Below, one piece after another: positions 1-63,935 of a stretch of 64,000 nt of DNA. A program made the position numbers and the translations under genes. The number at the start of each line of letters is the position of its first letter. Position 1 is the stretch's first letter. The notes beneath the pieces are model-generated. The model saw only the letters and a list, made by a program, of their open reading frames with translations. It ran no database searches and was not told the origin of the DNA. This stretch comes from an uncultured bacterium (GTDB taxonomy: Bacteria; Desulfobacterota; Desulfobaccia; Desulfobaccales; 0-14-0-80-60-11), in assembly GCA_937943575.1 (NCBI GenBank), contig CALEAV010000008.1, forward strand, positions 76,062-140,061. The letters are read 5' to 3'.

Positions 1-1447
1 GGAGAGCAATGGGGCCCTGATGGCGCACCGCGGTGTAGAGCATGTGCCGCAGCTCATCTTCGTCCTTGGGGGCCATGAGCACTAAATTGGGGATGTGCCT
101 CAGATATGAAAGGTCAAAGAGGCCCTGATGGGTCTCGCCGTCCTCCCCCACGATGCCGCCCCGGTCCAGGGCGAAGACCACCGGCAGGTTCTGGAGGCAG
201 ACATCGTGCAGCACCTGATCGTAGGCCCGCTGCAGGAAGGTGGAGTAGATGGCCACCACCGGCCGCAGGCCCTCCACCGCCAGGCCGGCGGCGAAGGTGA
301 CGGCGTGCTGTTCACAGATGCCCACATCGAAGAAGCGCTCCGGGAACTTGGCCCGGAAGTCCACCAGGCCGGTGCCGTCGGGCATGGCCGCGGTGATGGC
401 CACCAGCCGGGGGTCGGCCTCCGCCAGGCGGACCAGGGTGTCGCCGAAGATCTCGGTGTAGGAGGGGATCTCCCCCAGGCTCTTTTTGGCCACCCCGGTG
501 TCGGGGTCGAATTTCCCCAGGCCGTGGAAGCCGGTGGGGTCGTTCTCCGCCGGCGGATAGCCCTTGCCCTTCTTGGTGAGGACATGCACCAGGACCGGGC
601 CGTCCAGGTTCTTGACGTTGTTGAGGGTCTCGATGAGGTGGTCCAGGCGGTGGCCGTTCACCGGCCCCAGATAGGTGAACTTCAGGGCCTCAAAGAGCAT
701 GCCCGGGGTGAAGAAGGCCTTCATGGCGTCCTCGCTCTTCTTGGCCAGGGCGCGGAGGTCGTCGCCGATGCCGGGCAGCGCCCCCAGGAGCTGCTCCACC
801 CGTTTTTTCAGGAACACCATGGTGCGGCCGGTGAGCTTGCGGCTGAAGAAGGAGGACATGGCCCCCACGTTGGGGGCAATGGACATGCCGTTGTCATTCA
901 GGATGACGATGAGGTCCTTGTGCAGGTCGCCGGCGTTGTTGAGGCCCTCCAGGGCCAGGCCGGCGGTGAGCGCCCCGTCGCCGATGACCGCGATGACCCG
1001 GCCCCGCTCCTTTTTCAGGCAGCGGGCCGAGGCCATGCCCAGGGCGGCGGAGATGGAGGTGGAGCTGTGCCCGGTGTCGAAGGCGTCGTAAATGCTTTCC
1101 GCCCGCTTGGGGAAGCCGCTGATGCCCCCGTACTGGCGCAAAGTGTGAAACTGCTCCTGGCGGCCGGTGAGCAGTTTGTGGGCATAGGCCTGGTGGCCCA
1201 CATCCCAGACGATCTTGTCCCGGGGGGCGTCAAAGACGTAGTGCAACGCCAGGGTGAGCTCCACCACCCCCAGGCTGGGGGCCAGGTGGCCGCCGGTTTT
1301 GGAGACGGTGCTGATGATGGTCTCCCGGATCTCCTGGGCCACCTGGGGCAGCTGCTCAAAGGACAGCTTCTTCAGGTCGGCGGGGCTGGAGATGGTGCTG
1401 AGCAGACGCCGTCTCTTCTCTCCCGGGGACTTCAGGTGCTCTTCCAA
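1..1447 (-). CDS. dxs: 1-deoxy-D-xylulose-5-phosphate synthase (N-terminal ~480 codons; gene runs off the left edge)
   Basis: Hand translation of the minus strand from TTG at 1447 (GGAGG 8 nt upstream): (M)[88 protein letters not shown]. This is a typical DXS N-terminus with the TPP-binding GDG..N motif. It is absent from the ORF track because there is no stop inside the window. Confidence 0.9.
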
Positions 1448-1460
1448 GGCTCATACCTCC

Positions 1461-2351
1461 TTAGCTGCGGCGCACCAGGAGATAGCGGCCGATGGCCCGC
1501 AGGGGCTCGGCTCGTTCGCCCAGGTCCGCCAGGCCTGCAATGGCCTGCTCCATGAGGGTGTGCGCCCACTGGCGGGCGGTTTCCCGCCCCAGCAGGGCCG
1601 GGTAGGTGGCTTTACGGCGCTTCTCGTCCTGGCCGGGGGTCTTGCCCATCTCCGCCGCCTCCCCCTCCACGTCCAATAAATCATCGGTAATCTGGAAGAC
1701 CAAGCCGAATTTTTCCCCGAAGTCGGTGAGACAGGTGAGCTGCTGGCGGCTGGCGCCCCCCACCAGGGCCCCGGCCCTGAGGGCGGCGGTGAGGAGGGCC
1801 CCGGTCTTCAGCCGGTGGATAGTCTCCAGCTCCTTGAGGGTAACCGGGCGGCCCTCGGCCATCAGGTCCAGCATCTGGCCGCCCACCATGCCCTGATAAC
1901 CCGCGGCCCGGCCGAGGAGCTCGATGATCTCCAGGAGCACCGCCTCCCGGCCTTCAAAGCGGGGGGCGGCCTCGGCCAGGAGGCGGAAGGCCTCGGTGAG
2001 GAGGCCGTCCCCGGCCAGAATGGCGGTGGCCTCGTCGAACTGCCGGTGGCAGGTGGGCCGCCCCCGGCGCAGGTCGTCGTCATCCATGGCCGGCAGATCG
2101 TCATGGATGAGGGAGTAGGTGTGGATCATCTCCAGGGCGCAGGCCACCGGCAGGGCCTCGGTGGGATCGGCCCCCACCGCCTCGCAGGCGGCGAGGCACA
2201 GGATGGGCCGCAGGCGCTTGCCGCCGGCCATGAGGCTGTAGTGCATGGCCTCCACCACCCGGAAGGCCGGCCCCCGCACCCGGGGGAGATGGGCCTCCAG
2301 GGCCCGGTTTACCAGTTGGCGCCGCTCTTCCAGATAAGCTTTGAGGTCCAC
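1461..2351 (-). CDS. ispA: Farnesyl/geranyl diphosphate synthase (polyprenyl synthetase)
   Basis: 296 aa ORF. Both Asp-rich motifs are present (LIHDDLPAMDDDDLRRG and FQITDDLLD). It sits in the conserved xseB-ispA-dxs order. Confidence 0.9.
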   Translation of the reverse strand: MDLKAYLEERRQLVNRALEAHLPRVRGPAFRVVEAMHYSLMAGGKRLRPILCLAACEAVGADPTEALPVACALEMIHTYSLIHDDLPAMDDDDLRRGRPTCHRQFDEATAILAGDGLLTEAFRLLAEAAPRFEGREAVLLEIIELLGRAAGYQGMVGGQMLDLMAEGRPVTLKELETIHRLKTGALLTAALRAGALVGGASRQQLTCLTDFGEKFGLVFQITDDLLDVEGEAAEMGKTPGQDEKRRKATYPALLGRETARQWAHTLMEQAIAGLADLGERAEPLRAIGRYLLVRRS

Positions 2352-2566: not shown

Positions 2567-2827
2567 TCAGCTCCCGCCCTCCCCCTCCTCTTCGGGGAAG
2601 GGTTTGGTGAAGAAATTGCCGCCGGCGTCCTTGAGGAGGAGCTCCACCCGGCGCTCCACTTCGTCCAGCCGGGCGTGGCAGAAGCGCACGAGCTGCACCC
2701 CCTCCTCGAAGGCCTGCAGCGAATCCTCCAGATTGAGGTTGCCGTGCTCCAGGGCCTCCAGCACCTCCTCCAGGCGCTGGAGGGCCTCTTCGAAGGTCAT
2801 TTTTGGCTCTGCTGGGATAGTCATCAT
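2567..2827 (-). CDS. xseB: Exodeoxyribonuclease VII small subunit
   Basis: ..MTFEEALQRLEEVLEALEHGNLNLEDSLQAFEEGVQLVRFCHARLDEVERRVELLL matches the XseB helical hairpin. I chose the start ATG at 2827 because it overlaps the upstream stop (ATGA). The longest ORF starts at 2845. Confidence 0.85.
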   Translation of the reverse strand: MMTIPAEPKMTFEEALQRLEEVLEALEHGNLNLEDSLQAFEEGVQLVRFCHARLDEVERRVELLLKDAGGNFFTKPFPEEEGEGGS

Positions 2828-3666
2828 GCCGGCAATTGCGGCCACAGCAGGGCCGCAGAGAGGAGAATCAGCAAGATCCGCGCCTGGTGGGTTTTGACAT
2901 CCACTCTTTCGTGGGCCAGGATGTTGCGCTGTCTGCGGATCAGATGGGCCAGATGCACCGCCTCTTCCGGGAGAATCTCCGCATCCCGGGCCATGCTGAT
3001 CAAATCATAGAGGCCAACGGTTCTGTCAGAGATCGAAAGAGACTGTCGGAGGCGGTTTTCCAGAAATTTGGCAATTTCAATGGGAGCATTGTTATCTATT
3101 TTTAATTGCTCCATGAATTTGGCAAATTTTGCATTCCCTGAGGAAGTTATAATTATTCCTTTTAAATCATTTAATAAATCTCCATCAGTCTGTTTCTGCA
3201 TCCTTAATTTATCTAAAACCTGTTCATATTTATTCTGGTATTCCGCCAACTGTTCCTCTGTTCTCCGAAGAGCAATTTTTAAACTTTCATTCTCAGAAAT
3301 TATGGCTTCATTGCTCTGTTGTCTTGTTTCAGAGATCATGTTCAGCAGGTTTTTCTTCTCCTCCAGCTCCTTTTCCAGATTCTGGATTTTTTCCTTCAGA
3401 ACCTGGTTTTCCTCCCGCAGGGCCGCCACAGGATCCCCTGCAGCGGGCAGAGATGGCCGGGTGATCTCCACGGAGACCAGTTCATCTCCGAATTCCGCCG
3501 TGATGGAATCGTAATGTTTGGCCGTCCGGGGGTAAACCCAGCATTTCTCTTCCGTATTCCACCGGTAATTGGGAATGGCCTTGGCCCGTTCCTTCTGGTC
3601 AAAAGGAATTTTCAGGTAGTATTCCGTTTCTGACTCCCAGGCGGCGAATCGCGGCCGTCCCGTCAT
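2824..3666 (-). CDS. Hypothetical protein: DUF5710-like N-terminus, central coiled coil, DUF4145/HEPN-like C-terminus with Rx4H motif
   Basis: 280 aa ORF. N-terminus EYYLKIPFDQKERAKAIPNYRWNTEEKCWVYP fits the YL.vPF.eK..AK..ga.W....K.W.vP pattern. The middle ~80 residues are E/K/Q/L-rich heptad-like. C-terminus LYDLISMARDAEILPEEAVHLAHLIRRQRNILAHE carries RNILAH at nt 2911-2928. The gene is AT-rich: 16/60 G+C in 3121-3180 versus 48/60 in 3721-3780 (hand counts). Confidence 0.6.
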   Translation of the reverse strand: MTGRPRFAAWESETEYYLKIPFDQKERAKAIPNYRWNTEEKCWVYPRTAKHYDSITAEFGDELVSVEITRPSLPAAGDPVAALREENQVLKEKIQNLEKELEEKKNLLNMISETRQQSNEAIISENESLKIALRRTEEQLAEYQNKYEQVLDKLRMQKQTDGDLLNDLKGIIITSSGNAKFAKFMEQLKIDNNAPIEIAKFLENRLRQSLSISDRTVGLYDLISMARDAEILPEEAVHLAHLIRRQRNILAHERVDVKTHQARILLILLSAALLWPQLPA

Positions 3667-3670
3667 CTTC

Positions 3671-5056
3671 TCACCCTCCGTCTCTCTCTCCCGGCCCGCC
3701 CCTCCCTGCCTCCACCCGGCAGTCCATCCGGCCCCTGGCCACCCGCACCCGGATGGCGCTCCCGGGAGGGGCCTGGGCCGGGTCCCGGATGATCACCCCC
3801 TCCGGCAGGGTGGTGGCCACTGCATAGCCCCGGTTCAGGATGGCCAGGGGGTCCAGCTTCTGCAGATGCTCCCGGGCCACCAGGAGGTGCCGCCGGCGCT
3901 CGCTCAGGGCCCGCTGCCAGGCCCGGAAAAGCTCCTGGCCGGCGGACCTGAGACGCTGGCGCTCGGCCGTCAGCCTCTTCCCGGGGCTCAGGAGCACCAG
4001 CCGGGAGCATCCCAGCCGGAGCTCCTGGCGCCGAGCCTCGAGAAGGCGCCCCAGGCGCCGGGTCAGGGCCTCCCCCCGCTCATCCACCCTCAGGCGCAGC
4101 TCGGTGAGCCGCCGCCTGAGGTCTGGCAGCCGCCGGGTCATCTGGGCCAGATGCCGGCGTTCGGCGCTGAGGTGCCGGCGCCAGGCCCGGAGGAGGGACC
4201 CCGCCAGCCGGGCGATCCTCCCCTGCAGCTCCGCCTTGTCCGGCAGCACCACCGCCACCGCGTGGCTGGGGGTGGCGGCCCTGACATCGGCCACAAAATC
4301 GCTGATGGTGAAATCCACCTCATGACCCACCGCCGAGACCACCGGGATGGGGCAGCGGGCGATGGCCCGGGCCACGATCTCCTCGTTGAAGGGCCACAGG
4401 TCCTCCAGGGAGCCGCCCCCCCGGGCCAGGATGATGACCTCCACCCCCGGCACGGCCGGCAGCTCCTCTACGGCCCGGGCGATCTCCCCCGCCGCCTCGG
4501 CCCCCTGCACCTTCACCGGGCAGATGAGCACCTCCACATTGGGGAAGCGTTGGCGCTGAAGCCGGAGGAAATCCCTCACCACCGCGCCGGTGGGGGAGGT
4601 GACCAGGGCCAGGCGCCGGGGCAAAAAGGGCAGAGGTTTTTTACGGGCGGGGTCGAAGAGGCCCTCCGCCGCCAGCCGCTGTTTCAGGGCCTCAAAGGCC
4701 TGGGCCAGGGCCCCCAGCCCCAGGGGCTCCAGGTAATCCAGAACCAGCTGATACTCCCCCCGCTGCTCGTAGACCGTGAGCCTCCCCCGGCAGAGCACCT
4801 GCATGCCTTCCTCAGGCTTGTAGCGCAGGTGCTGATGGCTGCCCTTGAAGAACACCGCCCGGATCTGGGCGCCCTCGTCCTTCAGGGTGAAGTAATAATG
4901 ACCCGAGGGCGGCTGTCTCAGGTTGGAGACCTCACCGCTCACCCACACCAAGGGAAAGCGGGGCTCCAGGGCCTCCCGGATGGCCCGGGTCAGGGCGCTC
5001 ACCGTGTAGACAGGGGGGTAGTCCTCGGGCATCTCGTCGTTGTGAATATATACCAT
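3671..5056 (-). CDS. xseA: Exodeoxyribonuclease VII large subunit
   Basis: 461 aa. N-terminal OB-fold region YTVSALTRAIREALEPRFPLVWVSGEVSNLRQPPSGHYYFTLKDEGAQIRAVFF is typical of XseA, and a long C-terminal helical region follows. Confidence 0.9.
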   Translation of the reverse strand: MVYIHNDEMPEDYPPVYTVSALTRAIREALEPRFPLVWVSGEVSNLRQPPSGHYYFTLKDEGAQIRAVFFKGSHQHLRYKPEEGMQVLCRGRLTVYEQRGEYQLVLDYLEPLGLGALAQAFEALKQRLAAEGLFDPARKKPLPFLPRRLALVTSPTGAVVRDFLRLQRQRFPNVEVLICPVKVQGAEAAGEIARAVEELPAVPGVEVIILARGGGSLEDLWPFNEEIVARAIARCPIPVVSAVGHEVDFTISDFVADVRAATPSHAVAVVLPDKAELQGRIARLAGSLLRAWRRHLSAERRHLAQMTRRLPDLRRRLTELRLRVDERGEALTRRLGRLLEARRQELRLGCSRLVLLSPGKRLTAERQRLRSAGQELFRAWQRALSERRRHLLVAREHLQKLDPLAILNRGYAVATTLPEGVIIRDPAQAPPGSAIRVRVARGRMDCRVEAGRGGPGERDGG

Positions 5057-5305
5057 ATTCCCCTTGCAGCCTCACTTTTTTCTCCGGCAGGGGCCGGCGC
5101 CGGTGGGAATTGATATTTTCGTTCTTATCTTTGTCTAAAGAGGTAAAGGCTCGCAGGTGCCACCGGGGCATGGTGGGGCCACAAACCGGGGGAGTGCCCC
5201 CCTCCCTGCGGATCCGGAGCCACGGTGGCAACGGGCGTGAGGCGGGCGTCCTTTCCGGGGACCGGCTGCCACGTCCCCGGCTATTCTGTGCAGGGGGTGC
5301 AGGCG

Positions 5306-6778
5306 ATGACCTCCCGACGCAAATGGTTCAGGTGGCTGGCCCTCCTCATGGTCGTGGGGCTGTGGCTGGGCGGCGCCGGCGCCGCCCAAGCCGGCCATGA
5401 GGACGCGGCGCTCTTCTATGAAGAGCTGGCCCGATACGGCAACTGGGTGGAGTACGGCACCTACGGCCCCGTCTGGTACCCCACCCGGGTGACGGAGAAC
5501 TGGCGTCCGTATCTGGACGGCCGCTGGGTGCCCACCCAAGGGGGCTGGGTCTTTGAGACCAGCGAACCCTGGGGCTGGGCGGTGTACCATTACGGCAACT
5601 GGATGCCCACGGAGGAATACGGCTGGGTCTGGGTGCCGGGGCGCACCTGGTATCCCAGCACCGTGGCTTGGCGCAGCAGTGACGAATACATCGGTTGGGC
5701 CCCCATCCCGCCTCCGGGGTATGTGCCGCCCCCGCCGTACTATCCCCCCGGCGGCTACTACCCGGGGATCCCGGTCCTGGACCTGATCACCGCACCGTTT
5801 TGGATCTTCGCCCAGGCGGTGAATTTTCTCCTGGGCTTCGGGCTGCCCTATGGGCCCACCTACTCGTATTACAACTGCGGCTGCTTGGTGCCCTTTACCC
5901 TGTATCCCACCATTTACCCCCGGACCTTCTGGATCACGGAGTATTACTATCCGGCCTATGCGCCCGGGGCCTACTTTTTCTTTGGGCCGTCTTTCCCCTA
6001 TGTCTCCCGGGTCTGCCGGGTGCCCTTGGTGCGCATTACCAACTACGTGCGGGAAGTGAATATCATCACCTACCGCAACGTGCTGCCGCCGCAACAGGTA
6101 TGGGAACGGCGCCCGTATATCCGGGAGGTGCTGCCGGCTGCCGTCCGGGAGGGGCGCCTAGAGGTGCGCCGGCGGGCGGAGCTCAGGCCGCCGGAGCGGC
6201 TGGCCCGCCCGGATGTCATCCCCCGGCCCCGGGAGCTGCCGGTACTGCCGAAAATCGAGCGGGTGATGCCCCCGGCCCGGGTGGCGCCGGAAGTGACCCG
6301 GCCCGAACCCCCCACCCGCCTCCGCCCCCGGGAGGGCCCGCCCCCGGAGGTGACCCGGCCGCCCGTGGAGCGAGGGCCGGTGGTGCCGGAGCGCCTGCGG
6401 CCCCGGGAGGGGCGGCCCCCGGAGGTGAGCCCGCCCGCCGCGCCGCCGCAGCGCCTGCGTCCGGAGGTGCCGGAGCGCCGGGGTCTGCGCCTGCCGCCCC
6501 AGGCAGTCCCGGAAGAGCGGCAAATCCGCCAGCAGCGGGAGCGGGACCGGCGCCTGGAGCGCAGCTTCCCGCCGGAGCAGCAGCGCCAGTTCCGGCAACA
6601 GGAGCGTGAGCTGAGGCGCCAGGAGATCTTCCGGCCCAGCCGGCCGGCCGCGCCGCCGCCCCGGCTGGAGCAGCCCCGGACCCCGCCCCGGCAGCCTCCG
6701 CCTCCAGCCCCGGAGCGCCGGGCCCCCCGGGGGGATGGCCGCCCTGAGGGCTTTCCCGGCCGGCCCGTCGGCCGCTAA
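5306..6778 (+). CDS. Secreted YXWGXW-repeat (DUF6600-like) protein with Pro/Arg/Glu-rich tail
   Basis: Start moved to the ATG at 5306, ahead of a signal-like MTSRRKWFRWLALLMVVGLWLGGAGAAQA. Trp-rich repeats: YGNWVEYGTYGPVWYP, GRWVPTQGGWVFE, PWGWAVYHYGNWMPTEEYGWVWVPG. The C-terminal half is low complexity. Confidence 0.65.
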   Translation: MTSRRKWFRWLALLMVVGLWLGGAGAAQAGHEDAALFYEELARYGNWVEYGTYGPVWYPTRVTENWRPYLDGRWVPTQGGWVFETSEPWGWAVYHYGNWMPTEEYGWVWVPGRTWYPSTVAWRSSDEYIGWAPIPPPGYVPPPPYYPPGGYYPGIPVLDLITAPFWIFAQAVNFLLGFGLPYGPTYSYYNCGCLVPFTLYPTIYPRTFWITEYYYPAYAPGAYFFFGPSFPYVSRVCRVPLVRITNYVREVNIITYRNVLPPQQVWERRPYIREVLPAAVREGRLEVRRRAELRPPERLARPDVIPRPRELPVLPKIERVMPPARVAPEVTRPEPPTRLRPREGPPPEVTRPPVERGPVVPERLRPREGRPPEVSPPAAPPQRLRPEVPERRGLRLPPQAVPEERQIRQQRERDRRLERSFPPEQQRQFRQQERELRRQEIFRPSRPAAPPPRLEQPRTPPRQPPPPAPERRAPRGDGRPEGFPGRPVGR

Positions 6779-7016
6779 GGGGATAAGGTGAGGGGCCGGG
6801 GCCCGCGGCCTCTGGCCGGTCCCCTGCGCCCCTCCCCATCTTCTGAGAAGGAGGGGCAGGGAGGGGCCGGAAAGGCATCCCCGGCCCTCCCTCCGCGTGT
6901 GGGCCGATGACTTGAGGCGGCGCTCAAGGCGGCGATTTCACTTCTCCCGCCCGGATGCCGACAAGTTGTCAAGGGGGGGGTGCCCCCCCGCTTCCAGCGC
7001 CCTCAGGGAGACAATC

Positions 7017-57966: not shown

Positions 57967-58242
57967 CGGGTGACCTCCTTGCCGGGGGCTTGACCCACCT
58001 GGTCTGCCATCCGTCAGGCGAGGACCGGGGGATCGGCGGTCCCTCTGCCTCGCCTCACACCCCTTCCCCGCCCCCTGGGGGGAAAGGGGTGGGGAGCGGG
58101 GGCAGGGGCCAAGCTCCCTGACCCTCTCTTTCCCAATCCCCTGCATCATACCACGGGGGCGGGCCGGGTTCACTTGCGAAGTGGGGGCGCCTTTCTTATA
58201 CTGAGAGGGAACTTTCGCTTATTCTCCGGAAACGAGGCCTCC

Positions 58243-60129
58243 ATGCAGCCCATCGCCCTTCGCTGGATCCTGTGGTATTTTCTGGCGTTCCTCCTTTTGG
58301 TCTTCGTGCTGCAGAATTATTTTCCCGGCCGCCGGGCGGTGCCCGTCAATTACAGCGAATTCCGCCGGCTGGTGGAGATCAAGGGCGTGGACGACCTGGA
58401 CATCAGCGCCGAGCTCATCTCCGGCCGCCTGCTGGAGCCGGGGCTGGAGTTTCTCGCCCGGGAGCGCCAGGATCCGGAGCTGGCCACCCGCCTGAAGGAG
58501 TCTTTGGGCCCGGAGCTGCGCTTCTCCACCGTCAAGCTGGAGGACAAGGACCTGGTGGACCGCCTGGACAAACAGGGCATCAAGTACCGGGCCCTGCCGG
58601 AGCGCACCTGGGTGACCCAGCTCCTCTCCTGGCTTTTGCCCATGCTGATTTTGGTGGCCATCTGGATCTACTTCTTCCAGCGCCTCGGCGCCGGCGCCGG
58701 GGGCCTCATGAGCGTGGGGAAAAGCCGGGCCAGGGTCTATATGGAAGACGAGGTCAAGGTGACCTTCAACGACGTGGCCGGGGTGGAGGAGGCGGAAGAG
58801 GAGCTCAAGGAGATCATCGAGTTCCTGAAAAATCCGGGGAAATTCCAGACTCTGGGGGGCAAGATCCCCAAGGGGGTGCTGTTGGTGGGGCCGCCGGGCA
58901 CCGGCAAGACCCTGCTGGCCCGGGCCGTGGCCGGCGAGGCCGGGGTGCCCTTCATGAGCCTCACCGGCTCGGACTTTGTGGAGATGTTCGTGGGCGTGGG
59001 CGCCGCCCGGGTGCGGGACCTCTTCCAGCAGGCCCAGGAGAAGGCGCCCTGCATCATCTTCATCGATGAGCTGGACGCCATCGGCAAGGCGAGAGGCATC
59101 AGCCCCCTGGCGGGCCATGAGGAGCGGGAAAACACCCTGAACCAGCTCCTCTCGGAGATGGACGGCTTCGACACCCGAAAAGGCGTCATCATCATGGCGG
59201 CCACCAACCGGCCGGAAATTCTGGACCCGGCCCTCATCCGCCCGGGGCGCTTCGACCGCCACATCCTGGTGGACCGGCCCAGCCTCAAGGGCCGGGAGGA
59301 CATCCTGCGCATCCACACCCGTAACGTCAAGCTGGCCCCGGATGTGGACCTGGCCAAGCTGGCGGCCCGCACCCCGGGCATGGTGGGCTCGGACCTGGCC
59401 AACATCGTCAACGAGGCGGCTTTGCTCGCGGCCCGGAAAAACAAGGCCGCGGTGGAGATGAGCGACTTTGAGGAGGCCATCGACCGGGTGGTGGCGGGCC
59501 TGGAGAAAAGGAACCGCATGATGAACCCCCGGGAGAAGGAGATCGTGGCCTACCACGAGTCGGGGCACGCCCTGGTGGCCGAGGCCCTGCAGCCCCTGGT
59601 GGACCCGGTGCACCGGGTCTCCATCATCCCCCGGGGCATCGGCGCTTTGGGCTACACCATGCAGCTCCCCACCGAGGACCGCTATCTGATGACCAAGTCC
59701 GAGCTGGAGGCCCGCATGGCGGTGATGCTGGGGGGCCGGGTGGCCGAGGAGCTGAAGTTCGAGGAGATCTCCACCGGGGCCCACAACGACCTCTACCGGG
59801 CCACGGACATCGCCCGCTCCATGGTGCGGGAGTACGGCATGAGCGAGAAGCTGGGGCCCCTGACCTTCGAGCGGGAGCGGCGACCCCTGTTTCTGGAGGG
59901 CATCATGCCCACCGCGCCCCGGGACTACAGCGAGGCCACGGCCCAGGAGATCGACGCCGAGGTGCGGGCTTTGGTGGACCGGGCCTACCAGCGGGCCAGG
60001 GAGATCCTCACGGAAAAAAGGGAGGTCCTGGAGCGGGTGGCCCAACACCTCCTGGAGAAGGAGGTTCTGGAGGGGGAGGAGCTGCGCCGCCTGCTGAATG
60101 AGGACCTAAAGACGGCGGCGACCCCCTGA
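58243..60129 (+). CDS. ftsH: ATP-dependent zinc metalloprotease FtsH
   Basis: Two N-terminal TM helices, Walker A GPPGTGKT, the SRH region, and the zinc site HESGHA. Confidence 0.93.
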
Positions 60130-60265
60130 AAAGGCCTTCCCTCCCCCCAAGCCGAGGCGTTCAGGGGGGCTTGACCGGCAAGGTCCCCAACGGGTGGGCG
60201 GTCAAGCCCACCGCGGCCGCCTGTTGCGACGCCGGGCAGGCGTCATTTCTCCCAGGAGCAGCAAG

Positions 60266-61172
60266 ATGCCATTCCCTTCATTTCAGGATTATTTCCTTCC
60301 ATTCCTGGAAATGCTGAACGATTCAAAGGAACATCCTATTAATGAGCTCGTCGATAAATGGGCAGATTATTTTAATTTATCTCCGGAGGACCGAAACGAA
60401 TTGGTGCCAAGCGGCTGGAAAAATAAAGACATATTCTTAGAGTTCACTGGACAAGGACTTATTTGAAAAAAGCCTCATTGATTTTGACACCAGGAAAGGG
60501 CAAAGTAAAAATCACCCCAAGAGGCCTGGAAGCCCTTGCCCAAAACCAGGAGAAGATCAGTATCAATTATTTGATGCAATTCGAGGAATTCAGGGAATTC
60601 AGACAGGCCAAAAAATCGCCACCGGGAGATGTCGGCAAAGAATCCCCAGAGATCGATAAGACGCCGGAGGAGATTCTGGCAGAGAATTATTTGCTCATGA
60701 GGGGGACTTGGCGAAGGAGATCCTGGCGAAGGTAAGATCATGCCCGCCGAAATTCTTTGAAAAACTGGCGCTGGATTGCTGCTGGCCAGGGGCTATGGCG
60801 GCTCGCGGAAGGACGCCGGGCAGGCAGGGGGGCAGAGCGGTGACGGCGGCATCGACGGGATGATCAAGGAAGATAAACCGTGATGTCGTGTATATCCAGG
60901 CCAAAAGATGGGATACTCCCGTGGGCAGACCCACCGTCCAGGCCTTTGCCGGAAGTCTGATGGGCAAAAAAGCCAATAAGGGCGTGATGATCACCCCTTC
61001 CCAATTTTCCCAGGATGCCCGGGACTAGGCAAAAAATATTGAAAAGAAAATGGTTCTGATTGACGGGGAAGAACTGGCCCAATTGATGATAGATTATAAC
61101 TTAAAGGTTTATGAGGCAACAAAGTACACAATAAAGAAGATGAATACAGATTATTTTGAAGATATTTCATGA
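60266..61172 (+). pseudogene. mrr: Decayed Mrr-family restriction endonuclease gene (several frameshifts, an internal deletion and an in-frame TAG)
   Basis: Pieces lie in three frames. Mrr_N: MPFPSFQDYFLPFLEMLNDSKEHPINELVDKWADYFNLSPEDRNELVPSG, then ..HWTRTYLKKASLILTPGKGKVKITPRGLEAL. Catalytic part: ..LLLARGYGGSRKDAGQAGGQSGDGGIDGMIKEDK / DVVYIQAKRWDTPVGRPTVQAFAGSLMGKKANKGVMITPSQFSQDARD*AKNIEKKMVLIDGEELAQLMIDY. Low GC: 23/60 in 60301-60360 (hand count). Confidence 0.8.
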
Positions 61173-61256
61173 AATTGTAAATTATCATTGCAATATGCCA
61201 CTTGTCGGCTTCCGAATATTAATTTGCCCTACTCAGATTCAAACCACCTTGCCTCC

Positions 61257-63935
61257 ATGAGCCCTTTAAGGACCTTCCCCTCTTCTTCTGAATTTCAGGA
61301 AGCCCTCCTTCAGGAAGCCCGGCACCACAGCCTGATCATTGTGCCGCACCAGCGGCTGGCCCGGCAGCTGTGGCACAGGCAGCGGCTTCAGGCCCTGGCG
61401 GCCGGGGAGCGGGCCTGGGAGCCGGTGAACTGCCGCACCCTGGGGGCCTGGTGGCAGGAGCTCTTAGAGCGTCTGTGGCTGCCGCAGCCGGCGCCCCCAC
61501 CCCTGGTGCGCCTGCGGCTCTGGCAGAAGGCCGTGGCGGCGGTGCCGCCCCTGGAGGGCACCGCGGCCGACCTCGCCTGGGCGGCGGCCCTGGATGAGGC
61601 CCACCTGCTTCTCATCCGGCATCGACTGGCGGCCCTTCCCGCCCAGGAGCCGGAGTTGCCGCTGGTGACCTGGCGCCGGCAGGTCACGACCCGGTATGAA
61701 GGGCTGCTGCGGGACCTGGGCTGGCTGTCGCCGGCCCGCCTGCCCGCCCTCCTGCTGGACGCCCTGGAGGCCGGGCGGGTCCCCCTGCCGGACCGGGTGG
61801 TGGTGGCGGGTCTGGCGGCCCCGGCGCCGGTGGAGGAGGAGTTCCTCACCCGGCTGGCCCGCCACACCCGGGTGGACCACCTCCAGGTGCAGGGGGACCC
61901 CGAAGCGGTGCGGGAAGCCTGGGTCTTCAAGGACATGGCGGAGGAGATGGCCTGGGTGGCGGCCCGGCTGGTGGAGGCCGCAGTGGAGGAGGGCCTCGCC
62001 CCCCACCGGGTGGCCGTCACCTCCCCGGCCATGGACAGCTATCTCCCTGCTTTCCGGCGGGTGCTCCAGGAGGTGCTGGGGCCGGCGGGCGGCCCGGAGG
62101 GCTGGCGCTACAATATCTCCCTGGGGCCCCGCCTGGCGGACACTTCCCTCTTTGCCGCCGCAGTTTTGCCCCTGGCCTTCTTTGCCCGGGGGGAGCGGCG
62201 GGAGGACCTGGCGGCCCTGTTTCTTTCGCCCTTTTACGGCCGCCTGTGGGAGGCCCGGGATGCTCTGGCTCTCCTGGACCGCCGTCTTCGGGACGAGGGC
62301 CCCCACCGGGGGTGGGAGGCTTTCTGTCAGGCCTGGCAGCGGCGGCGGGACGGGCTCCCTGCCCTGGCGCGCCTGGAAGAGGCCCTTTCAGCCCTTTGCG
62401 GCTGGAGGGGGGCGGCCGGGGAGGGGTGCCGCCGGCTGCGGCAGGCCTGGGAGCTTCTGGGCTTCCCGGGAAGATTGGACCAAGGGGGGGCCGACGCCTG
62501 GCGCCACCTGCAAGGGGTCCTGCAGGAGCTGTCCCGGGCTTTGGCAGAGGAGACCTTAAGCCTGCCGGACTTTCTTGCCTGGCTCACCCACGCCGCCAAG
62601 GGGGTGGAGCTGGCGGGCGAGGGCCGGGAGGAGGCGGGTTTCCAGGTGCTGGGCCTGCTGGAGACCCGGGGGCTGGAATTTGACCGGGTCTTCTGCCTGG
62701 GAATGACCTCGGGCAACCTTCCCGGGCCGCCCCGGCCGCTGCCCCTGCTTTCTCCTTGGGAGAAGCGCCAGGTGCTGGGCGGCACCGCCGCCTCGCAGTT
62801 CCGGTATGCCGCCAGCCTCTATGCCGGCCTGCAGGGCGCGGCGCCGCACCTCGTCCTTACCCGCCCGGCGGTGGTGGAGGAGGAGGAACAGGTGGGGACC
62901 TATTTCTACGGGGGCGACTGGCGTGAGGGGGGCCTCAACCCCCTGAGCACCCCGCACCCGGCGTGGCTGGCGGTGCCGGCGGTGAGGGCGGCCCTGACGC
63001 CGCCGCCCCCGGCCGCCGAGGCGCCCCCGGTGGCGGTCCACCTGCCCCGGCCCGCCGAGATCCGCCTCACCCATGCCCAGATCGGGTTCTCCTGTCCCTG
63101 CCGGTTCCTTTTGGAGGTGCTGCTGGGGGTGGAACCCCTCCCCGAAGAGGAGGAGGGGCTTTCCGCCCTGGACCGCGGCCGGCTGCTCCATGAGGTGGTG
63201 GCCCGGTTTGTGCGCTCTTTCGGGCCGGTGCTCGAGGCCGGGGGGACCTGGGACGACGCCCTGGCCCGGCAGCACCTGGAGGAGGCGGTGGCGGCCACCC
63301 TGGAGCCCTTGGCCGCCGACCCGCATCTGGAGGCGGAGCGGCTCCGCTGGCTGGGGGATGAGACCATCCCCGGGCTGCTCCCGGCCTGGCTGGCCCTGGA
63401 AAAGGAGCGCTTCCAGGAGGGCTGGCGCTGGGTGGCGGTGGAGCAGGAGTTCACCGGTCTGGCGCCGGCGGACTGCTCCCTGAGCCTCCGGGGGCGCCTC
63501 GACCGCCTGGATCACCATCCAAAGCGGGGGGAGGTCGTCGTGTGGGATTACAAAAGCGGCGCCATTCCCAATCGCCTTGCGGTGTTCGAGCGCCAGGAGG
63601 AGCACCAGCTCCCCGGGTATCTCCTGGCGGTGCGCCAGGGTGCGGTGGCCGCGCCGGAGCCCGCCGCCCTCCTGAAGGCCGGGTTCATCAGCCTCAAGTC
63701 TCCCCGGCAGGGGCATCTGAAGCATGAGGATTATGGAAGCTCCCCCGAGGCGTGGGAGGAGGTCATGGCCGCCTGGGAGGACCGCCTGCGGGAGCTGGCC
63801 CGGCGCCTGGAGGCGGGGGAATTCCCGCCGCAGCCCACGCCGCCCCCCCGAGGGAGCAATGCGGGAGCCTGCGCCTATTGCCCCTATCCCCTGCTTTGCG
63901 GCTACCGCGGCGCTGAAGAGGAGGCGGAAGGATGA
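61257..63935 (+). CDS. addB: AddB-type PD-(D/E)XK nuclease subunit of a helicase-nuclease complex (iron-staple Cys cluster)
   Basis: About 890 aa. The C-terminal nuclease domain has FSCPCRF.. and ..GACAYCPYPLLCG (the C..CxxCx5C arrangement of the AddB Fe-S staple) plus ..GRLDRLD..VVVWDYKSG. No Walker A motif. Its stop overlaps the next ATG. The start is uncertain (ATG 61257 versus TTG 61188). Confidence 0.7.
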   Translation: MSPLRTFPSSSEFQEALLQEARHHSLIIVPHQRLARQLWHRQRLQALAAGERAWEPVNCRTLGAWWQELLERLWLPQPAPPPLVRLRLWQKAVAAVPPLEGTAADLAWAAALDEAHLLLIRHRLAALPAQEPELPLVTWRRQVTTRYEGLLRDLGWLSPARLPALLLDALEAGRVPLPDRVVVAGLAAPAPVEEEFLTRLARHTRVDHLQVQGDPEAVREAWVFKDMAEEMAWVAARLVEAAVEEGLAPHRVAVTSPAMDSYLPAFRRVLQEVLGPAGGPEGWRYNISLGPRLADTSLFAAAVLPLAFFARGERREDLAALFLSPFYGRLWEARDALALLDRRLRDEGPHRGWEAFCQAWQRRRDGLPALARLEEALSALCGWRGAAGEGCRRLRQAWELLGFPGRLDQGGADAWRHLQGVLQELSRALAEETLSLPDFLAWLTHAAKGVELAGEGREEAGFQVLGLLETRGLEFDRVFCLGMTSGNLPGPPRPLPLLSPWEKRQVLGGTAASQFRYAASLYAGLQGAAPHLVLTRPAVVEEEEQVGTYFYGGDWREGGLNPLSTPHPAWLAVPAVRAALTPPPPAAEAPPVAVHLPRPAEIRLTHAQIGFSCPCRFLLEVLLGVEPLPEEEEGLSALDRGRLLHEVVARFVRSFGPVLEAGGTWDDALARQHLEEAVAATLEPLAADPHLEAERLRWLGDETIPGLLPAWLALEKERFQEGWRWVAVEQEFTGLAPADCSLSLRGRLDRLDHHPKRGEVVVWDYKSGAIPNRLAVFERQEEHQLPGYLLAVRQGAVAAPEPAALLKAGFISLKSPRQGHLKHEDYGSSPEAWEEVMAAWEDRLRELARRLEAGEFPPQPTPPPRGSNAGACAYCPYPLLCGYRGAEEEAEG

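Follow-up and report, generated by a model that had tools for sequence, protein, structure and literature searches.

A candidate DNA-sensing HEPN ribonuclease encoded inside the exonuclease VII operon of a Desulfobaccales-like lineage

The HEPN signature is an Rx4-6H motif in which the arginine is usually followed by a polar residue. Ribonucleases (RNases) of this class work in pairs, two chains together making up the active site (PMC13017515), and the DUF4145 family has been placed in the HEPN superfamily by Anantharaman et al. (PMC3710099). Here we describe an open reading frame (ORF) of 280 amino acids (aa) that lies between xseA and xseB, the genes of the large and small subunits of exonuclease VII (ExoVII), in a 64,000-nucleotide stretch of DNA from an uncultured Desulfobaccales bacterium (contig CALEAV010000008.1, positions 76,062 to 140,061; hereafter the window). 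The ORF product is predicted to join an N-terminal DUF5710 head through a long coiled coil to a C-terminal HEPN domain of DUF4145 type. In the papers searched, we found no mention of DUF5710 combined with HEPN, or of a HEPN gene in an ExoVII operon.

Among the closest described systems is RAZR (PD-T7-4), a zinc ribbon joined to a DUF4145 HEPN domain, which is activated by assembly on phage protein rings; its HEPN arginine and histidine are essential, and it stays silent until a trigger assembles the protein (PMC13017515). Like the ORF product, RAZR is encoded by a single gene and carries a small N-terminal sensor and a C-terminal DUF4145-type HEPN domain. However, the RAZR sensor is a Cys4 zinc ribbon and there is no long coiled coil, whereas the ORF product has a DUF5710 head and a helix of ~97 residues between head and HEPN. 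The latter protein contains no Cys4 motif, its sole widely conserved cysteine (C42) not being invariant across 66 family representatives, and it gave no match to the PADLOC model for PD-T7-4.

RloC is a HEPN-class anticodon nuclease under the control of a Rad50-like coiled-coil DNA sensor; DNA breaks activate it, so that DNA damage is tied to RNA cleavage (PMC3458546, PMC3874168). In RloC and PrrC (PMC2610378, PMC3458546, PMC3874168), as predicted for the ORF product, a HEPN-class RNase is connected to a long coiled-coil module for DNA sensing. They differ in carrying an ABC/Rad50-like ATPase with a zinc hook. Pfam, PADLOC and NCBIfam scans matched no ATPase or P-loop family in the 280-aa protein, which is about one third the size and has a sensor predicted to be HARP-like instead. 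The Ishtar proteins, with HEPN domains of DUF4145/DUF3644 type, clear plasmid RP4 (bioRxiv 10.64898/2026.07.06.735840), an element replicating through single-stranded DNA (ssDNA) or RNA primers. They resemble the ORF product in being monogenic and patchily distributed, but place HEPN at the N-terminus and a beta-rich domain at the C-terminus, with neither a coiled coil nor DUF5710; this distinction was drawn from their description.

HEPN-MNT type II/VII toxins (7ae8, 7ae2) were among our Foldseek matches and have in common with the ORF product the Rx4-6H motif and, as predicted, the HEPN bundle. Such toxins are small, single-domain proteins neutralised by an adjoining minimal nucleotidyltransferase (MNT), whereas the ORF adjoins xseA and xseB, and no MNT gene adjoined any family member among the loci examined. 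As for the head, a fold of ~65 residues (beta-beta-alpha-beta-beta-alpha) appears to be common to it, to the SMARCAL1 HARP domain and to the damage-recognition domain (DRD) of archaeal XPB (4o66, 2fwr, 2fz4), with sequence identity of only 8-18%; there the domain sits on superfamily 2 (SF2) helicase motors, here on a predicted RNase via a coiled coil. Compared with the plasmid and phage proteins of Pfam DUF5710, the head scores at the family threshold. By these comparisons the protein lacks the defining features of RAZR, RloC/PrrC, HEPN-MNT and Ishtar, and would work like such systems without being one of them.

A predicted DUF5710, coiled-coil and HEPN architecture

The AlphaFold2 (AF2) model of the 280-aa protein (predicted local distance difference test, pLDDT, 84.7) has three parts: a beta-beta-alpha-beta-beta-alpha head (aa 8-67), an unbroken helix (aa 79-175) and a five-helix bundle (aa 179-277). 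For aa 17-43 of the head, Pfam DUF5710 (PF18974) scored 26.5 bits (E 5.4e-6), level with its gathering threshold of 26.5, an assignment shared by the precomputed Pfam annotation of the protein database. A scan of 66 diverse family representatives detected DUF5710 in 32/66 (best 5.2e-9) and DUF4145 also in 32/66 (best 1.9e-6, E<=0.01). No other specific Pfam family recurred among the 66 members, the remaining matches being coiled-coil noise.

Conservation concentrated at the two ends. Invariant in 20 close homologues were C42, W43, P46, E58 and F59 in the head, and H241, R244, R247, N248, H252 and R263 in the tail; residues at least 90% conserved in the 66-sequence set were R27, A28, W36, W43, E58, F59, H241, R244, R247, N248, H252 and R263. 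In the N-terminal domain, W36, W43 and F59 stood out as invariant. The tail set includes R247-N248-x3-H252, an Rx4-6H motif with a polar residue following the arginine, translated as RNILAH from nt 2911-2928. When the predicted structure was compared with the PDB by Foldseek, the top matches of the C-terminal part were HEPN proteins (1wwp, prob 0.99; 2hsb; 1o3u; 7ae8; MtlR), with weak E-values of at least 0.1, and the isolated C-domain gave a faint match to the PADLOC Csx1/Csm6 HEPN model (E 0.013). An original prediction, made from the letters of the window, had proposed a DUF5710 N-terminus, a central coiled coil and a DUF4145/HEPN C-terminus with an Rx4H signature. Each of the three parts was supported, the tail by the family matches, the invariant RNxxxH and the HEPN structural matches, its own Pfam score being sub-threshold.

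For the central helix, the hydrophobic score of heptad positions a and d was reached by 9 of 500 shuffled sequences. The interdomain segment (aligned to query residues 72-176) measured 87-170 residues in the 66 representatives and was poorly conserved; the coiled coil is both the AT-richest and the least conserved part of the ORF, and its length varies in the family. Matches to PADLOC LmuB, JetC and Csm3 and to NCBIfam MukB and SMC all mapped to the coiled coil and were rejected as homology. Whether run with the complete protein, with the profile of the family or with profiles of its N- and C-domains, sequence searches of the PDB returned coiled-coil noise or nothing significant, and calmodulin-like PDB matches (E 0.04-0.3) were set aside as compositional. 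Taken together, these results support a three-part architecture of DUF5710 head, coiled coil and DUF4145-type HEPN bundle, as modelled.

We know of no function assigned to DUF5710. Modelled alone, the head reached a pLDDT of 84.5 and a predicted template modelling score (pTM) of 0.68, and its top PDB matches by Foldseek were identical to those obtained from the full model. They comprised the N-terminal damage-recognition domain of archaeal XPB (2fz4, 2fwr, 6p66 and 5tnu; query TM-score, TMq, 0.49-0.55; root-mean-square deviation ~3 A; prob 0.9-0.95) and the SMARCAL1 HARP domain (4o66), with MutS domain I lower; the E-values of 0.1-0.4 are not significant alone. Matches in BFVD, a viral structure library, were stronger and concordant (best E 7.7e-4, TMq 0.75, prob 1.00). 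These were phage proteins annotated 'HepA-related protein', 'SSL2 DNA or RNA helicase', SMARCAL1-like, 'Helicase/UvrB N-terminal' and, in several cases, 'DUF5710 domain-containing'. Weak tblastn matches to the head also fell in plasmid genes annotated as DUF5710 or zincin-like metallopeptidase domain-containing.

The DUF5710 head thus models as a HARP / XPB damage-recognition-like fold, from which we infer that DUF5710 may be a small module recognising DNA structure (fork, gap or ssDNA). Separately, the N-domain profile gave a weak match (E 0.013, 18 bits) to residues 97-139 of 11fs_A (Cas10IVc). This segment of a type IV-C Cas10-like protein has the same RW(D/N)xxxxxW...Y..L..EF pattern, which may reflect chance or a related small domain.

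Operon layout, composition and inheritance of the ORF

The ORF sits exactly between the two ExoVII genes (Table 1). Four nucleotides (GAAG) part the xseA stop codon (TGA, 3671-3673) from the ORF start (ATG, 3664-3666), and a Shine-Dalgarno-like GGAGGG lies at 3674-3679, in the last codons of xseA and 7 nt before the ORF ATG. At the other end, the ORF stop (TGA, 2824-2826) and an in-frame xseB start (ATG, 2825-2827) overlap as ATGA. The placement, gap and overlap had been given correctly to the nucleotide in the original prediction, as had the position of RNILAH, and Pfam confirmed both flanking genes.

Table 1. Features of the ExoVII locus and of the ORF product, in window coordinates
Feature	Coordinates	Strand	Basis
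280-aa ORF (P0001), DUF5710 / coiled-coil / HEPN	2824..3666	-	ORF list and homologues
xseA, exonuclease VII large subunit, 461 aa	3671..5056	-	Pfam Exonuc_VII_L 1.7e-100 and tRNA_anti_2 OB fold
xseB, exonuclease VII small subunit	2567..2827	-	Pfam Exonuc_VII_S 3.3e-20
ispA (polyprenyl synthetase)	1461..2351	-	Pfam polyprenyl_synt 2.8e-59
dxs, partial, runs off window start	1..1447	-	Inferred from identical contig L001
Predicted N-terminal domain, aa 1-72, DUF5710	3451..3666	-	Pfam, AF2 and Foldseek
Predicted coiled-coil helix, aa 79-175	3142..3432	-	AF2 and heptad score
Predicted C-terminal five-helix HEPN domain, DUF4145 type, aa 176-280	2827..3141	-	Pfam and Foldseek
R247-N-I-L-A-H252, Rx4H HEPN RNase signature	2911..2928	-	Translation and conservation

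An alternative xseB ATG at 2800-2802 would give a product of 77 aa, against 86 aa from the overlapping ATG, and gene callers split between the two on identical contigs. At homologous loci xseB carries an N-terminal extension of 8-10 residues, favouring the longer form, and at locus L004 the ORF stop and the xseB start overlap by 1 nt (TAATG). The xseB start is thus ambiguous between two ATGs; the overlapping one is plausible, as is translational coupling of ORF and xseB, judging from the sequence. The gene order xseA-ORF-xseB-ispA-dxs was common to L001, a contig identical to the window in which the DXP_synthase gene starts 13 nt past ispA, and to L004 and L005. We found no convincing terminator between the genes and, within the window, no Rfam family or tRNA marking an integration site; the only sigma-70-like site in the ORF (3125-3098, minus strand) was within chance expectation. 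In L005 a 190-nt spacer (5810-6000) takes the place of the 4-nt gap between xseA and the ORF. This spacer contains short tandem motifs (GGTTTCAG twice and GGGATTAG twice) plus a G-run, and could be a promoter or an insertion scar.

The base composition of the ORF sets it apart from its surroundings. The counts of 16/60 G+C at 3121-3180 in the ORF and 48/60 at 3721-3780 in xseA, on which a foreign origin had been proposed, were reproduced exactly. In 638 overlapping 200-nt segments of the window (mean GC 0.675, sd 0.063), the ORF was the deepest trough (0.315 at 3101), and GC fell below 0.40 in one further patch only; the dip is not due to chance. G+C at third codon positions (GC3) was 0.555 in the ORF against 0.887 in xseA and 0.886 in ispA, and this low value attributes the dip to codon usage and not to amino-acid content alone. 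Within the ORF, GC3 is a mosaic: the head stands at 0.65 and the HEPN core at 0.74, while the coiled coil falls to 0.2-0.47, with values of 0.2-0.3 in the middle of the ORF. All members examined had GC3 below that of neighbouring genes, by a wide margin in high-GC hosts (0.43 against 0.88 in L004, 0.24 against 0.82 in L005, 0.29 against 0.87 in L014 and 0.27 against 0.77 in L016). On codon usage, then, the ORF is foreign in composition, as originally proposed.

Divergence within the operon pointed to a long residence. Between the window and L004, identity was 90% for XseA, 94% for IspA and 73% for the ORF product; between the window and L005 it was 72%, 77% and 55%, respectively. Divergence of the ORF scales with that of the operon, at a higher rate, which in sequence terms is compatible with inheritance from a common ancestor. 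The ratio of non-synonymous to synonymous substitution (omega) was 0.12 for the whole ORF, 0.015-0.07 for the head and 0.025-0.05 for the HEPN core, with synonymous sites near saturation, and amino-acid identity to L004 was 48% in the coiled coil against 87-94% in the end domains. Since both end domains are under strong purifying selection, we conclude that the ORF is functional. Synonymous divergence (dS) between the window ORF and its L004 counterpart (6001-6858) was 1.0-1.4, against 0.32 for xseA, that is 3-4 times higher. Together with the mosaic GC3, this high dS has three possible explanations: an allele may have been replaced at a fixed site, amelioration may be partial and still under way, or AT-rich codons may be selected for.

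Two other features of the window deserve mention. A DUF6600 protein (window 5225-6778, plus strand; L004 2833-4290) is a conserved divergent neighbour of xseA in both loci, and its C-terminal half is extremely rich in proline, arginine and glutamate and encoded by very GC-rich DNA (up to 0.86). The second low-GC patch (60194-61250, plus strand; GC 0.34-0.5), between neighbours at 58174-60129 and 61188-63935, contains two 90-aa ORFs that make up a frameshifted Mrr N-terminal domain (PF14338, 7e-11 and 4e-3), flanked by ftsH and by a gene for an AddB-like PD-(D/E)XK nuclease (PDDEXK_1, 5e-36). The domain being split, the patch is a decayed restriction-enzyme remnant, and a second foreign insert adjoining a DNA-repair nuclease gene.

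Spread and genomic neighbours of the family

An exhaustive hidden Markov model search, clustered at 50% identity, recovered 552 family clusters at E<=1e-3, 356 at E<=1e-10 and 158 at E<=1e-30. The tripartite architecture is fixed, because nearly all clusters match end to end at 260-350 aa. Full-length members were spread over several phyla, coming from metagenome-assembled genomes (MAGs) labelled Deltaproteobacteria/Desulfobaccales, Caldilineaceae, Chloroflexota and a beta-proteobacterium; in a Chamaesiphon and in an Anaerolineae MAG, a related HEPN domain alone was present, with another N-terminus. In a word-indexed protein database, 15 proteins were found with the family profile, and the HEPN-only profile returned nothing.

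The xse-linked arrangement was confined to one small Desulfobaccales-like clade, comprising the window and contigs L001-3 (ORF identity 100%), L004 (~71-73%) and L005 (~54-55%). At least nine other contexts occurred in the family, and members at 30-43% identity were not near xse genes. In a clade at ~38% identity (L008-L010, L025, L026), the ORF overlaps the start of the endonuclease III gene nth (HhH-GPD and EndIII_4Fe-2S domains). In another case the ORF precedes a gene with a faint Smr match (P0010), and in L034 it precedes genes for a Metallophos protein and a 1170-aa protein, weakly assigned as SbcCD-like. Further members lie between an OMPdecase/RraA fusion and BrnT/BrnA (L014), upstream of panC (L016), and near PDDEXK/REase-ARP and SNase genes (L011). 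In a Caldilineaceae genome (L032/L033), the order is HsdM-HsdS-unknown-ORF-AAA-Y4kK-S8 protease-BrnT/CopG.

These contexts show that linkage to xse is clade-specific, and that DNA-nuclease, toxin-antitoxin and restriction-modification neighbours recur in separate clades. The hard-wiring to an ExoVII operon claimed in the original prediction therefore stands for the one clade (window, L004 and L005, 54-100% identity) and falls for the family. What was not anticipated is that other clades adjoin nth, Smr-like and SbcCD-like genes, and that the head has a predicted HARP / XPB-DRD-like fold. The nth, Smr-like and SbcCD-like neighbours suggest a signal connected to DNA damage or foreign-DNA processing.

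Several loci bear on how the family is assembled and lost. In a Deltaproteobacteria MAG (L020, 5454-6189; VGSJ01000089.1), a C-terminal remnant lies between murG and murC in the dcw cluster, where a gene for an IS200-like Y1 transposase sits atop the truncated member and the HEPN part alone is left. Members of the family thus enter further core operons as well, where they can degenerate. Elsewhere the HEPN module occurs under other heads: DUF6884 in L019 (1984-3057) and the homing-endonuclease-associated HNH_repeat in L018 (5416-7539, adjoining a PemK/MazF toxin). A DUF6884 fusion carrying the related HEPN domain scored 21.4 bits for DUF4145, and in L024 a DUF6884 and TPR gene (1011-2578) overlaps the start of a full DUF5710-HEPN member. 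The pattern suggests a modular family with exchangeable sensors, possibly with DUF6884 as a partner. As a separate observation, BrnT with BrnA or CopG lies 0.2-4 kb from two unrelated members, in a Deltaproteobacteria MAG (L014, 7002-7554) and in Caldilineaceae (L032/L033, 9603-10163); this sample is too small to separate coincidence from linkage.

Proposed mechanism and competing explanations

We propose that the protein is a HEPN RNase of conflict or stress type that unites sensor and effector in one chain, dimerises and senses DNA; its gene would have been captured in the ExoVII operon without encoding an ExoVII subunit. We give this reading an even chance of being right. The coiled coil (~14 nm) would form a parallel homodimer with two HEPN domains at one end and two heads at the other, so that pairing of the HEPN domains builds a composite active site. 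The protein would stay silent as long as its heads are free, and would be released once they meet an aberrant DNA structure or a protein attached to one; candidate ligands of the paired DUF5710 heads are ssDNA, forks, gaps or a bound protein. Binding by the heads would then switch on cleavage of tRNA, rRNA or mRNA, and growth would slow or stop, a sensor-effector logic which we liken to that of RloC and of single-gene HEPN immunity proteins such as RAZR. The gene itself would be a horizontally moving cassette that landed between xseA and xseB in an ancestor of the Desulfobaccales-like lineage and has since been retained, with expression from the operon via the Shine-Dalgarno sequence in the 3′ end of xseA.

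Several points weigh against this proposal. The protein's own DUF4145 match (aa 219-265, 17.2 bits, E 0.005) lies below the gathering cut-off of 23.1, and the Foldseek E-values against the PDB all exceed 0.001 for both domains. An active RNase that is constitutively co-expressed without an antitoxin requires tight auto-inhibition, which we have only assumed. No known defence model was matched in PADLOC beyond coiled-coil noise, by the whole protein or by either end domain, and no family member was found by tblastn in phage or plasmid collections or by a scan of IMG/VR; carriage of the family on known mobile elements is thus not obvious. Defence-island-like contexts are a minority of those seen, most being housekeeping, and the contexts themselves form a small sample of about 10 independent neighbourhoods, most on short contigs. 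Finally, the gene has apparently been passed on along with the operon, and this also fits a domesticated housekeeping accessory. Of the original suggestion of a defence gene, what survives is the proximity of some members to toxin-antitoxin or restriction-modification genes; recognition by defence models and copies in phages or plasmids are missing.

The foremost alternative is a housekeeping RNase coupled to DNA repair, whose head would bind lesions, gaps or stalled forks handled by the co-expressed nuclease while HEPN removes nascent transcripts or R-loop RNA. Four phylogenetically separate clades adjoin DNA nuclease genes (xseA/xseB, nth, the faint Smr, and Metallophos with the 1170-aa protein), and in two of the four the stop and start codons overlap; the predicted head fold is that of SMARCAL1, XPB and phage SF2 repair helicases; and in the xse operon the gene has been retained vertically for long under strong purifying selection. 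However, the Smr and SbcCD assignments are weak, and other members lie by panC, the dcw cluster, OMPdecase/RraA, BrnTA pairs and an HsdMS/AAA/protease island. A GC3 far below that of the host and a sporadic phyletic spread are atypical of core repair factors, and no HEPN RNase is known in a repair pathway. On balance we hold this explanation to be unlikely, though worth keeping in view.

A broader version of the same idea would see an unrecognised class of RNases, activated by DNA lesions or ssDNA intermediates and wired to repair nucleases (ExoVII, endonuclease III, SbcCD-like, Smr). Here the HARP-like head would read a DNA intermediate that the partner nuclease either produces or leaves uncleared, and HEPN would cut RNA to clear transcripts or R-loops from the site of repair, or to halt translation once repair is overwhelmed. 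We offer this as speculation with rather poor prospects; if true, it would be a direct and widespread bacterial link from DNA repair to RNA cleavage, placed in housekeeping operons instead of defence islands.

A protein trigger gives a special case of the conflict-type RNase proposed above, in which the protein guards a DNA-processing machine. The head would monitor a host protein or DNA intermediate that phages or plasmids attack (ssDNA nucleases, single-stranded-DNA-binding protein), and the RNase would fire to cause abortive infection. Elsewhere, the proteins annotated with DUF5710 are DNA-handling proteins of plasmids and phages (the weak plasmid tblastn matches and the phage DUF5710/helicase matches); this speaks for such a guard, as do the single-gene DUF4145 HEPN proteins acting on phages (RAZR) and on plasmid RP4 (Ishtar) and some members near restriction-modification or toxin-antitoxin genes (BrnTA, PemK, HsdM/HsdS). 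We nevertheless consider it improbable: a housekeeping operon is an unusual site for an abortive-infection gene, and contexts resembling defence islands are a minority of the ~10 neighbourhoods.

In well-studied bacteria ExoVII consists of XseA and XseB alone, which counts against the other alternative raised originally, namely a lineage-specific third partner. Such a partner, or a regulator, would bind XseA, XseB or both, and would influence how ExoVII assembles, where it localises or which substrates it chooses. Its attraction lies in the locus itself: the ORF stands exactly between xseA and xseB in three lineages whose XseA differs by up to 28%, has its Shine-Dalgarno sequence in the 3′ end of xseA, overlaps a candidate xseB start with its stop in the window and L004, and is under strong purifying selection. 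Yet most family members, even those with the same architecture at 37-43% identity, are away from xse, so that consistent co-occurrence with xseA/xseB does not extend across the family; in L005 the 190-nt spacer parts the ORF from xseA; and invariant catalytic HEPN residues are unexpected in a purely structural adaptor. We think a third ExoVII partner very improbable. Foreign composition, and the related copy degraded elsewhere by a transposase insertion, could be read as signs of a decaying or neutral hitch-hiker left over from a past insertion, but this we regard as highly implausible, the ORF being intact in all three xse-linked lineages, the catalytic residues being invariant among the 20 homologues, and omega (0.02-0.07 in both end domains) effectively refuting a pseudogene or relic.

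The conflict- or stress-type RNase captured in the ExoVII operon would join the single-chain sensor-HEPN RNases (RAZR, Ishtar, RloC), increasingly recognised as a major class of effectors in bacterial immunity and stress. New here would be a HARP / XPB-DRD-like DUF5710 sensor and the scaffold that carries it, and the habit of lying within or against operons of DNA-repair nucleases with codon usage still foreign is unusual. The proposal is also a first functional hypothesis for DUF5710, a Pfam domain found on plasmid and phage DNA-handling proteins, and it concerns a family of hundreds of clusters that is unannotated and invisible to current defence-finder models. If the linkage to repair nucleases is functional, it would point to RNA cleavage as a response to sensed DNA damage or foreign DNA. 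If it reflects landing-site preference only, the family would exemplify conflict-type genes stably domesticated inside essential operons (xseA-xseB-ispA-dxs), a case that bears on operon annotation and on the discovery of defence genes.

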